Shown here in pieces: positions 6,678-8,752 of a stretch of 32,000 bases of DNA (the first letter of the stretch is position 1; every line of letters begins with the position of its first letter). The translations under genes and the position numbers were made by a program. The notes under the pieces were generated by a model. The model saw only the letters and a list, made by a program, of their open reading frames with translations, made no database searches and was not told where the DNA came from. Origin of the DNA: Promethearchaeota archaeon (GTDB taxonomy: Archaea > Asgardarchaeota > Lokiarchaeia > Sigyniarchaeales > Promethearchaeaceae); NCBI GenBank assembly GCA_016933055.1, contig JAFGBS010000002.1, positions 90,001 through 122,000 on the forward strand, read 5' to 3'.

Positions 6678-7292
6678 TTATTTAGTGTCAATAACTTTTT
6701 TTCCACAATGCGTACATAAAATCAAATTTTTACTAATTTTTTGTCCGCAGTGAGGACAAGTCTGTAGGGATCGTTTTACCAAAATTTTAGCAATCTCGTC
6801 AAAAGCTTCTTGGATCCCCAATCCTTCTTTCGCAGATGTCTCTTTATATAAATCCATCTTATGTTTTTTCTTGAATTTTAACGCATGTTTGCGAGATATC
6901 TGGCGTTGATCTTCCAGATCTATTTTTGATGCAATAAGACAAATAATAAGGTCGGATTCAGCATTTTTTACCAGGGATAGCCAATTATCCAGATCTTGAA
7001 AACTGCTTGGATCGGTGATGTCAAAAAGAAGAAATGCGGCACTAGCTCCCGAGCAATATGCTGGAAAAAGTTGCCGGAATTTATTTTCACCCGCAAAATC
7101 CCATATACTAAATTGTAACTTAATGGGGTCCGGACTGGCAGATGGATCATTTACAGTGATAGTTTTCACTTCGAATTCTACACCGATAGTGCTAAGAGTG
7201 TCAGCTTCAAATCGATCATCCACTGCCCTTCTTATCAATGAGGTTTTTCCTACCCCTTTAGACCCACCGATGACAATTTTTAGTTTAATCAT
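6678..7292 (-). CDS. Rab-like small GTPase with C-terminal CxxC...CxxC zinc ribbon
   Basis: G1 GGSKGVGKTS, G2 TIGVEF, G3 WDFAGE, G4 ASKID, G5 ETSAK. Rab-family-like IGVEF, YCSGA and LLFDIT. Tail CPHCGQKISKNLILCTHCGKK. Confidence 0.88.
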   Translation of the reverse strand: MIKLKIVIGGSKGVGKTSLIRRAVDDRFEADTLSTIGVEFEVKTITVNDPSASPDPIKLQFSIWDFAGENKFRQLFPAYCSGASAAFLLFDITDPSSFQDLDNWLSLVKNAESDLIICLIASKIDLEDQRQISRKHALKFKKKHKMDLYKETSAKEGLGIQEAFDEIAKILVKRSLQTCPHCGQKISKNLILCTHCGKKVIDTK

Positions 7293-7543
7293 TATTCAGA
7301 ACCCAATTTTCTTTCAAAACAACGTACCCATATTAAATCGAAACGTAAATCTATTTCGGGATTAGTTATTTGGTATTTGTTTTTAAATAGTATTATTTAT
7401 GAATTGTCTGATTTCTATTTAATTTTTCCTTTCCTTAAAGAGATCAATCCTATGTGTGTGAAAAATCATTAAGGATTTATTTTCTTATTTTCTAGTGGTT
7501 TACCGATTTAGTATAAAAACAAAATGGGATTAGCGATATACCT

Positions 7544-8752
7544 ATGGAGAGTTCAGTGAAAATCCCCGGAACAAGTTGGAACATGAAAGTATATCAACTT
7601 GAAGATTCTTATAATGATCCTACCGTTATCGTGGAATTTATCAAGGGTATTCACGTGATGCATCAATTTATATTGGAGAAAGAGGGAACATTAGAGAAAA
7701 TTTTTCAACTATTCTTGGAACGTGAGAATCTACTAATCCCTGAAAACCGGTTACAATATTTTATAAACCAACAGATTGGAGACATATATAAATTAACCGT
7801 GAATAAACCAAAACGAAAAAAAACCACCATCAAATCCATGATGAACCTTTCAGAAATGAAAGATAAAAAAATTAACATTATGGGATTATCCAGTTCGGGT
7901 AAAAGTTCGATATATAAGGTAGTTTTTGAACAAAAAAAATGGTGGGACCTAAAAGATATTTTACCCACTCAAGGTATACAGCAATATGAACAAACTGTGA
8001 ATTCCTTAAAGGATTTTAAGCTTTATATTTTAGATTTTGCAGGAAATGTACATGACTTTAAATTATATCGTAAAGATGCGTCTAAATATTTCTCTACTAC
8101 TTCTGCTTTAGTGTTTGTAATTGATGTTTCAGATCCAGAAAGCCTGCAAGATGCAGTCAATAAATTTTCTTGGAGTGTGAACCAAATGGCTGAATATGCC
8201 CCTGAGGGACGTATATTTTGTCTATTACATAAAACTGATCTTGCAACCCAAGTGGATAATTTTCAAGGTATTTCTGATTTCATCGAAAATAGCGTGAATG
8301 GTATAAAAACTAAGATCCATATTATCCCCACAAGCGTTCGGAATAATACAATTTATCTTGCTTGGGAACAAATCTTCAAATCCTTAATTCCTAAAGATAA
8401 AAGTTTAGATATTCTCACACAAAACTTGAAAGAAAAATTGAACCTCTACAACCTCTTGGTTCTAGAAAAAAGAACGGGTTTAGCGATTTGTGGATCAGTA
8501 GGATTATTAGATAACGAAGTTTTGGTGGGTACCATAAATAAAGTATGGCATCAATTGGGCAGTCTCGCAGACGATATTGAACTTGCGGGATTACAACAGA
8601 TTACCTGTTCATTAGGAAATGGCTATCTGTTTTTAGAAGAATTTGAAAAGAATTTGATCTTGGTTATGGTGAGTCCAAAAATTGATGTTCTTGATAAATA
8701 TAAGGAGAATATTGATAGATTCAAGCAAGAAATTATACGCGCTGTAATCTAA
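7544..8752 (+). CDS. Rag/Gtr-like GTPase with ~105-aa N-terminal extension and C-terminal roadblock/longin-like domain
   Basis: G1 GLSSSGKSS, G2 LPTQG, G3 DFAG, ALVFVIDVS, G4 LLHKTD, G5 TSV. The C-terminal ~125 aa (LLVLEKRTGLAICGS...GYLFLEEFEKNLILVMVS...ENIDRFKQEI) follow the pattern of RagA/Gtr1 C-terminal roadblock domains. Confidence 0.75.
   Translation: MESSVKIPGTSWNMKVYQLEDSYNDPTVIVEFIKGIHVMHQFILEKEGTLEKIFQLFLERENLLIPENRLQYFINQQIGDIYKLTVNKPKRKKTTIKSMMNLSEMKDKKINIMGLSSSGKSSIYKVVFEQKKWWDLKDILPTQGIQQYEQTVNSLKDFKLYILDFAGNVHDFKLYRKDASKYFSTTSALVFVIDVSDPESLQDAVNKFSWSVNQMAEYAPEGRIFCLLHKTDLATQVDNFQGISDFIENSVNGIKTKIHIIPTSVRNNTIYLAWEQIFKSLIPKDKSLDILTQNLKEKLNLYNLLVLEKRTGLAICGSVGLLDNEVLVGTINKVWHQLGSLADDIELAGLQQITCSLGNGYLFLEEFEKNLILVMVSPKIDVLDKYKENIDRFKQEIIRAVI

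Follow-up and report, generated by a model that had tools for sequence, protein, structure and literature searches.

The stretch of DNA analysed here, referred to as the window, comprises 32,000 nucleotides of the genome of a Promethearchaeota archaeon (GenBank assembly GCA_016933055.1, contig JAFGBS010000002.1, positions 90,001 to 122,000 of the forward strand), and carries two genes for Ras-superfamily GTPases that are transcribed away from each other. One encodes a Rab-like protein that ends in a zinc ribbon and is called Rab-ZnR below; the other encodes a longer, multidomain protein of the Rag/Gtr type, called Rag-like. Both genes are real and intact, and together they form a divergently transcribed pair that is conserved at the level of the family (Table 1). 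A first-pass annotation, made from the letters of the sequence, had described two different Ras-superfamily GTPase genes that diverge from an AT-rich spacer of 251 bp; both open reading frames (ORFs) are present at these positions, and their Pfam matches agree with that description. Its statement that both G3 motifs are of the form DFAG and lack the catalytic Gln could likewise be read from the sequence, with WDFAGEN in Rab-ZnR (Glu69, at the position of Ras Gln61) and LDFAGNV in the Rag-like protein (Asn198).

Table 1. Features of the GTPase locus; positions are counted from the first nucleotide of the window, except for the last row, which gives positions in other loci or contigs.
Feature	Position	Strand	Description	Support
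Rab-ZnR	6678..7292	minus	204-aa Rab-like small GTPase with C-terminal zinc ribbon	Pfam Ras 1.5e-39
Rab-ZnR P-loop GGSKGVGKT	7242..7268	minus	residues 9-17; Lys12 at the Ras Gly12 position	
Rab-ZnR G3 motif DFAGE	7086..7100	minus	residues 65-69; Glu69 replaces the catalytic Gln	
Rab-ZnR zinc ribbon CPHC-x10-CTHCG	6702..6758	minus	residues 179-197	
Divergent spacer	7293..7543	none	251 bp, AT-rich, 26% GC	
Rag-like gene	7544..8752	plus	Rag/Gtr-type GTPase of subfamily B, 402 aa	Pfam Gtr1_RagA 2.8e-34
N-terminal KIPG domain of Rag-like	7544..7801	plus	residues 1-86; three strands and two helices	
Rag-type G domain	7859..8392	plus	P-loop GLSSSGKS 7883-7906; DFAGN 8123-8137; HKTD 8228-8239	
C-terminal roadblock (LC7-type) domain of Rag-like	8393..8749	plus		AF2 secondary structure and superposition
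UXS-like gene	5602..6663	minus	UDP-glucuronate decarboxylase; directly downstream of Rab-ZnR; start codon uncertain	
guaA	8792..10363	plus	GMP synthase; follows the Rag-like gene after 39 nt	
Hef	17014..19404	minus	helicase-ERCC4 nuclease	Pfam ERCC4, DEAD, Helicase_C, HhH
GPP34 near the pair	L040:7692-8363 (G011); L103:2864-3517; G002:C560:591-1148			

For the comparison with relatives, f1 denotes the family of the window genome, which includes Promethearchaeum syntrophicum MK-D1; f3 and f5 are other families, g1 to g7 are genera, and labels beginning with L are loci or metagenomic lineages. The window genome (G000) shares genus g1 with a sister genome, isolate AMARA_1 (G001); MK-D1 is G010, and Candidatus Harpocratesius repetitus is G011. 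The head-to-head pair is found in nine genomes from four genera of f1, namely G000 and G001 of g1, G004, G008 and G011 of g4, G006, G010 and G013 of g6, and G007 of g7, with spacers of approximately 66–382 bp across f1 genomes; in MK-D1 it lies at ~477.5–479.6 kb of NZ_CP042905.2 and has a spacer of 382 bp. It is also present in two metagenomic lineages. In L103, the gene order is guaA, Rag-like, GPP34, a second Rag-like gene whose product is 40% identical to that of the window, 173 bp, and a divergent Rab-ZnR; in L105, it is methyltransferase, Rag-like, 113 bp, Rab-ZnR and NUDIX, with the pair again head to head. The synteny analysis that the first-pass annotation had suggested as a check hence came out in favour of the pair, which is kept in four f1 genera and two metagenomic lineages amid otherwise unrelated neighbours.

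Indeed, when the 16 genes from the first 20 kb of the window were looked for within 10 kb on either side of the pair in g4, g6 and g7, only the two GTPase genes recurred. TldD, PmbA and UXS stay together elsewhere in these genomes (in G011, for example, this block is located at ~3.92 Mb and the pair at ~0.02 Mb), indicating that Rab-ZnR moved with the Rag-like gene and not with UXS. A scan of species-representative genomes, from which the best 80 Rab-ZnR loci were taken (L132–L211), gave a divergent Rag-like neighbour in 8 of the 80; these are the 8 loci most similar to the query, and those that could be matched to surveyed genomes all belong to f1.

The window genome holds 43 small-GTPase ORFs, six of which are of the Rag type, and two of these six have a Rab-like gene as immediate neighbour, as compared to a chance expectation of ~0.2 (a hand estimate from these counts). 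Taken over all 43 ORFs, adjacency does not exceed chance (2 pairs against a random mean of 0.78; P ~0.2), and a general clustering of small-GTPase genes in this genome was discarded as not significant; only the combination of Rab-like with Rag-like stands out. Both of the adjacent GTPase pairs in the genome, which are the only two, are of this composition. The second one (G000:C10:21033-23168, locus L007) consists of a Rab-like gene (209 aa) and a Rag-like gene (406 aa; Gtr1_RagA 2.5e-19) in tandem, separated by a 172-bp gap; it is kept in the sister genome and in G009, and the orthologous Rag-like gene of f3 instead precedes another Rag-like gene.

Rab-ZnR is a member of an order-wide family. 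Full-length matches that include the zinc ribbon are present in 54 of 61 related genomes, from four families of the order (E <= 1e-38), and a profile of the family matches Rab6, Ypt6, Rab1 and Rab8 at ~1e-47, the top 60 solved matches all being Rab/Ypt proteins (E ~1e-47 to 1e-44). The switch motifs TIGVEF and WDFAG are those of a Rab-type G domain, and residues 177–199 match Pfam Zn_ribbon_3 (1.4e-6). The family is clearly set apart from other GTPases: among the ~40 Ras-like genes of the genome only one closely resembles it, orthologues score 1e-46 or better and own-genome paralogues 1e-34 or worse, and in the tree the orthologues are monophyletic and distinct from the genome's other Ras-like paralogues (support 97/95), with the sequences of f1 as one group inside this clade. 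Public records name the orthologues merely 'GTP-binding protein', and none of the papers that could be searched describes a zinc-ribbon small GTPase in Asgard archaea.

An alignment of 23 Rab-ZnR orthologues showed that G10, G15 and K16 of the P-loop, W64, D65, F66, G68 and E69 of the G3 region, and the four zinc-ribbon cysteines C179, C182, C193 and C196 (CPxC-x10-CxxCG) are invariant, and that the xKxD and SxK motifs are invariant or nearly so; Lys12 is kept in at least 90% of the sequences and is Arg in one. Judged from this alignment, Rab-ZnR is under strong constraint throughout its range. The catalytic Gln that follows DTAG in eukaryotic Rabs is absent, its place being taken by the invariant Glu69, and the conservation of this residue together with Lys12 points to a catalytic site unlike the scheme in which a Gln is complemented by the finger of a GTPase-activating protein (GAP). 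In Ras, the substitution Q61E raises the rate of hydrolysis over that of the wild type. The protein also lacks a cysteine motif for geranylgeranylation: its cysteines form the zinc ribbon, which is followed by 2–20 further residues, and which occupies the place of the prenylated tail that anchors eukaryotic Rabs to the membrane.

Two further ORFs with Ras-like sequences, and one that overlaps Rab-ZnR, may be mentioned here. A 470-aa ORF of the same genome, outside the window (G000:C28:148459-149895), joins a Ras-like domain at its N terminus to a zinc-ribbon-like motif, CxxC...CxxC, at its C terminus, and is a second, longer architecture that combines GTPase and zinc ribbon in this genome. Within the window, another Ras-like small GTPase ORF lies at 31081–31695 on the minus strand (phmmer 1.3e-17 to Rab-ZnR) and carries no zinc ribbon. 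A 116-aa ORF at 7015–7365 on the plus strand, which overlaps the 5' part of Rab-ZnR in antisense, is most probably spurious, its apparent conservation mirroring that of Rab-ZnR on the other strand.

The Rag-like protein is, by sequence and by predicted fold, a true member of the Rag/Gtr family in all but the catalytic Gln. Residues 109–315 match Pfam PF04670 with 119 bits (cut-off 22), and a profile of 25 Rag-like relatives matches Gtr1 at 7e-44, RagA at ~1e-41 and RagC at ~1e-36 across both the G and the C-terminal domains, with the Gtr1 alignment spanning residues 98–387. The AlphaFold2 (AF2) model, whose predicted local distance difference test score (pLDDT) is 77.6, consists of an N-terminal domain (residues 5–85), a disordered linker, the G domain and a C-terminal domain of the roadblock type. 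Its best Foldseek match is Gtr1 (4arz_A; template modelling score (TM) 0.86 by target), and superposition on full-length Gtr1 and RagA gave TM values of 0.84–0.87 by target over ~295–308 columns. The C-terminal domain, with the order alpha-beta-beta-alpha-beta-beta-beta-alpha, overlays that of Gtr1/RagA, as expected of a roadblock domain, and Pfam Robl_LC7 is recorded for the L100 orthologue.

The G domain of the Rag-like protein carries the HKxD form of G4 that characterizes the Rag/Gtr family (HKTD, residues 229–232, invariant), and K109, G114, G119, K120, D194, H229, K230 and D232 are invariant. A Gln in switch II, of the type of RagA Q66 or RagC Q120, is not present; the window protein has DFAGN and its counterpart from the sister genome DFAGT, and a Gln after DxxG is found in the Rag-like orthologues of f3, g7 and L103, the L103 motif being the canonical DLGGQ. 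The domain that precedes the G domain, which we call KIPG after one of its motifs, yielded a pLDDT of 80 when modelled alone. Its resemblance to PH, PTB and FERM-F3 domains was considered and set aside, the matches being weak and tied (Z at most 5.7), and it is not assigned to any family.

A tree of the Rag-like proteins resolves two subfamilies, both of which possess the KIPG domain with its KIPG and IPxNR motifs. With a threshold of E <= 1e-20, a search of 60 relatives gave homologues in 12 of the 13 f1 genomes and in 13 of the 42 f3 genomes. Subfamily A occupies f3 and f5 and reaches f1 only as additional copies in a single genome; subfamily B is confined to f1. No second subfamily member was found in the window genome at the same threshold. 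All Rag-like genes that are adjacent to Rab-ZnR fall into a single clade, B (support 96/88). The only members of clade B that are not adjacent to it come from genus g5 and are nested inside the clade, indicating that the adjacency was lost secondarily in that genus, where a gene of no known kind stands in the place of Rab-ZnR beside Rag-like B. The explanation that best accounts for this distribution is that subfamily B arose from subfamily A within the family of MK-D1, and has probably stood head to head with Rab-ZnR since then.

Rab-ZnR was not detected in either g5 genome. The best Rab-like match in that genus (G009:C1:5661496-5662032; 1.3e-37, residues 4–184) contains two in-frame TAG codons, and may be either a degraded copy or an unrelated paralogue. 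As for subfamily A, its genes in f3 and f5 lie in a conserved co-directional cluster (L094:3205-10389, L090-L098) with a giant surface protein of 1000–2000 aa (DUF2341, Laminin_G_3 and Ig domains) on one side and an uncharacterised 290-aa protein on the other, a further uncharacterised gene being convergent.

The two members of the pair differ in how well their GTPase motifs have been kept. In Rag-like B of g4, g5, g6 (including MK-D1), L100 and L105, the P-loop is shortened or altered and DxxG with switch II is lost; none of the Rag-like B proteins examined has lost HKxD, the KIPG/IPxNR motifs or the roadblock domain. GTPase motifs have hence been lost repeatedly in Rag-like B and never in Rab-ZnR. 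Constraint on the GTPase of Rag-like B appears to be relaxed, as would fit a protein maintained for its interaction surfaces and not for a GTP cycle of its own.

The spacer is poorer in GC than the surrounding window (26% versus ~34–38%). A 14-nt block, AAAAATCATTAAGG, at positions 7461–7474 is common to the sister genome only. The spacer matches no Rfam family at E <= 1, and its predicted fold does not go beyond that of shuffled controls (z = 0.57). The motif ATCATTA, which occurs in 4 of 11 spacers, was dropped as a candidate, having been picked after the data were seen, so that its P value is not meaningful. Metatranscriptome contigs of the source study gave no match to the window.

On the other side of Rab-ZnR lies a gene whose product is, with confidence, a UXS-type decarboxylase as predicted from sequence comparison: its best solved relative is human UXS1 (2b69; 2.3e-77), with the next enzyme class at 8e-36, it has a Pfam Epimerase match, and the Rossmann motif TGGAGFLG (GxxGxxG) and the catalytic motif YDESK (YxxxK), as expected of a UXS among the extended short-chain dehydrogenases/reductases, can be read in the translation. 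No NCBIfam equivalog passes its cut-off for this protein. The first-pass annotation had placed the gene 14 nt after Rab-ZnR, a distance that holds only if translation starts at an ATA at 6663, since the reading frame contains no ATG, GTG or TTG ahead of the Rossmann motif. The GTG at 6671–6673, 4 nt past the Rab-ZnR stop codon, is in frame in the sister genome and off by one base in the window. Positions 6532–6750 are covered by the probable source contig alone, other runs matching short pieces elsewhere. The 5' end (window 6553–6680) could reflect a real 5' frameshift, initiation at ATA or ATT, or an assembly indel.

The order Rab-ZnR then UXS, on the same strand, was seen in 39 of the 80 loci and in at least 8 genera; Hef precedes the two in 35 loci, and in 4 UXS is downstream of Rab-ZnR without Hef. 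In f3 and several other lineages, Hef, Rab-ZnR, UXS and a DUF1616-like gene follow one another on one strand. The gap between Rab-ZnR and UXS measures 73–468 nt in f3, 33–163 nt in L100–L104 and 4–14 nt in the genus of the window, and the two genes are separated in g3, g4, g6, g7 and L103. The linkage is, to judge from its distribution, old, and co-transcription in the genus of the window is plausible. The order belongs to a longer one, c7, TldD, PmbA, DUF1616, UXS, Rab-ZnR, Hef, Rpb6 and GNAT, which is kept across f1 and f3. As an observation on synteny, the tie to a nucleotide-sugar enzyme is thus real; its functional weight is weak, because unrelated genes surround it in a long block and because it is broken in several genera.

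Downstream of the Rag-like gene, guaA adjoins it in the sister genome, L100 and L103, is nearby in G002 with GPP34 in between, and is not adjacent to it in g4–g7. GPP34 is the family of Vps74 and of eukaryotic GOLPH3, a protein that retains Golgi glycosyltransferases. A gene of this family adjoins the GTPase pair in three lineages (g4, g2 and L103) in which the gene orders differ, and such a recurrence in different arrangements is typical of a shuffled functional neighbourhood. GPP34 was not found in the window genome. As a general partner of the pair it was therefore rejected, both for the window genome and for f3, where it is located on other contigs than Rab-ZnR and Rag-like.

How should the conservation of the pair be explained? 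The single most likely reading, to which we assign a probability of roughly 45%, below even odds, is that both GTPases serve the same pathway, in which Rab-ZnR would provide the nucleotide switch and Rag-like B would act as a lineage-specific adaptor, regulator or effector by way of its roadblock and N-terminal domains, its own GTP hydrolysis being dispensable. It is the decay of motifs in Rag-like B, as opposed to the constancy of Rab-ZnR, that suggests this combination of a switch with an adaptor or regulator. We infer the functional coupling, the direction of regulation and any contact between the two proteins; a prediction of the 1:1 complex of Rag-like with Rab-ZnR scored 0.00 in both runs, which, having been made without controls, is evidence neither way.

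Several observations weigh against coupling. Gene adjacency is the sole evidence for it, and unrelated neighbours such as PmbA and UXS stay together in this clade with no less stability than the pair, indicating that descent alone can keep gene order here. Rab-ZnR is present in 41 of 42 genomes of f3, as compared to 13 of 42 for a KIPG-containing Rag-like protein, and in all of these the latter belongs to subfamily A and is located elsewhere. In G003, Rab-ZnR lies next to Hef and Rag-like B is absent, and g5 has kept Rag-like B without a detectable Rab-ZnR. The partnership is therefore not obligate, each gene occurring without the other in many genomes. The genera g4 to g7 share a wider block (NUDIX, the pair and a methyltransferase), so that effectively one deep split only, between g1-like lineages and g4–g7, tests the pair independently, and it is at this split that the Rag-like tree joins two long branches. 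Insertions separate the two genes in two lineages: L100 has the gene order of the window with a 3-kb insertion between the GTPase genes, and G012 has one of 1.8 kb that holds two ORFs of 145 and 217 aa (L044:5496-7338). The ORFs of the L100 insertion (L100:2185-4721), of 85 and 742 aa, have no Pfam match. No spacer motif conserved beyond the genus was found among the compared spacers. These last two findings, the tolerated insertions and the lack of a motif kept beyond the genus, also leave without support the shared bidirectional promoter that the first-pass annotation had envisaged.

The observations just listed would be accommodated by a real competitor, a possibility that we take seriously, namely adjacency by descent: the Rag-like gene would have been inserted once beside Rab-ZnR in the ancestor of the family and have remained there by inertia, with the two GTPases serving unrelated processes. 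That long blocks of functionally unrelated genes keep their order across f1 and f3 makes such inertia credible, as do the occurrence of each gene without the other, the insertions and the spacer comparison. What inertia explains less readily is that the pair stayed together in g4, g6, g7, L103 and L105 when its surroundings changed, that Rab-ZnR went with the Rag-like gene and not with UXS when the old block broke, and that GPP34 recurs beside the pair in differing orders. A link to UDP-xylose supply, with Rab-ZnR and UXS on a common transcript and the Rag-like gene governed by the same control region in a co-regulated two-GTPase switch, appears unlikely. The frequency of the Rab-ZnR–UXS order, the 4 nt that separate the Rab stop codon from the in-frame UXS GTG in the sister genome, the confident identification of the enzyme and the presence of GPP34 beside the pair in three lineages are all in its favour. 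On the other hand, the UXS link is no tighter than those to Hef, TldD/PmbA or Rpb6, with gaps as wide as those of f3; UXS and Rab-ZnR are apart in five of the lineages named above, and all three genes are together only in g1-like ones; moreover, the window genome has no GPP34, and its UXS gene has a 5' end without a canonical start. The functional tie to UXS put forward by the first-pass annotation consequently finds no backing, the linkage being part of the long Hef/TldD/PmbA/Rpb6 block, and g4, g6 and g7 having lost UXS from beside Rab-ZnR and kept the Rag-like gene.

Hef is the most persistent neighbour of Rab-ZnR, lying upstream on the same strand in 40 of the 80 loci and on the opposite strand in ~9 more, so that this adjacency has outlived an inversion; in the window this ancestral upstream neighbour has been displaced and is still found ~9.7 kb upstream. 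Zinc ribbons are common in archaeal nucleic-acid-binding proteins. The true partner of Rab-ZnR could then be Hef or another nucleic-acid process, with the zinc ribbon docking onto nucleic acid or protein and the Rag-like gene an incidental neighbour, but we find this very doubtful: the link to Hef has been lost in most of f1 without loss of Rab-ZnR, the block holds other unrelated genes, and we know of no precedent for a Rab-like GTPase in repair. A more far-reaching proposal, which we consider improbable as it stands, is that Rab-ZnR and Rag-like B, together with the GOLPH3-like GPP34 where present, make up an archaeal membrane-identity module tied to surface glycosylation through the UXS/DUF1616 neighbourhood. 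As a self-sufficient switch, Rab-ZnR would in that case rely on Lys12 in place of a finger supplied by a GAP and on Glu69 in place of the Gln; its zinc ribbon would dock it, and Rag-like B would be a Rag-derived pseudo-GTPase platform. If true, such a module would be a prokaryotic forerunner of the Rab/GOLPH3-type control of glycosylation machinery.

In Asgard archaea, Rab-, Arf- and Rag-like GTPases number in the dozens and their partners are unexplained, and the pair described here is a rare concrete and testable pairing that is present in a cultured strain. It unites a Rab-like switch with unusual, conserved catalytic-site residues and a zinc ribbon with a Rag-type protein that appears to be becoming a pseudo-GTPase. 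If the proteins interact, this would show in what way Rag-type roadblock proteins served before there was Ragulator or TORC1; if they do not, the pair would be a warning against inferring function from synteny in this clade.

Comparison with known systems places the two proteins close to, and yet apart from, their eukaryotic counterparts. As in RagA/Gtr1 and RagC/Gtr2, the G domain of the Rag-like protein carries HKxD and precedes a roadblock domain at the C terminus, but the protein differs from them in the additional KIPG domain of ~86 residues and in the Asn that replaces the Gln of switch II; furthermore, its gene partner is Rab-like and not a second Rag, and no Ragulator, GATOR or TORC1 context is evident. 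Among the Foldseek matches are likewise two Lokiarchaeal Rag-like proteins of solved structure, LokiRagO (8YL2) and LokiRagM (8ZLA, 9M28), with TM values of 0.78–0.80 to LokiRagO. Rab-ZnR shares the Ras fold, the TIGVEF switch I and WDxAG with eukaryotic Rabs (the best being Rab6/Ypt6, Rab1/Ypt1, Rab8 and Rab18), and departs from them in its four-Cys zinc ribbon, in Glu in place of Gln, in Lys at position 12 and in SKxD in place of NKxD. The absence of terminal prenylatable cysteines is a trait that it has in common with Asgard Rab-like proteins such as Thor-Rab (Tran et al. 2024, PMC10933270).

With respect to gene arrangement, few conserved neighbourhoods have been reported among Asgard trafficking-type genes, one of them being an operon in which a Rab-like GTPase is encoded together with a DENN protein and a LAMTOR1-like roadblock protein (Liu et al., bioRxiv 10.1101/2020.10.19.343400). 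There, as here, a Rab-like gene is kept beside the gene of a roadblock protein; here, however, the roadblock lies inside a Rag-type GTPase, a DENN gene is missing, and the arrangement, which is divergent and not an operon, is confined to one family. MglA–MglB, the model for a roadblock dimer that acts on a small GTPase (PMC10933270), is similar in that the small GTPase is encoded beside a roadblock-domain protein. MglB, however, is a single roadblock from the same operon, whereas the genes of our pair are on opposite strands and do not form an MglA/MglB module, and the roadblock is fused behind a G domain which, in Rag proteins, already occupies that platform. In MK-D1, GTPase genes are generally not beside regulator genes, so that pairings cannot be read from the genome, and the architectures listed for this strain include GTPases preceded by another domain and followed by a roadblock domain (Tran et al. 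2024, PMC10933270). Tandem Rag-like gene pairs are also seen in family f3. The closest parallel in the literature is an MK-D1 operon of two Rag-like genes whose products are predicted to heterodimerise like Gtr1–Gtr2 (Tran et al. 2024, PMC10933270): in both cases two GTPase genes are adjacent in the same family of organisms, but that pair is on one strand and has two roadblocks, whereas the pair described here joins a Rab-like to a Rag-like gene on opposite strands, with a Rab-ZnR that carries no roadblock.

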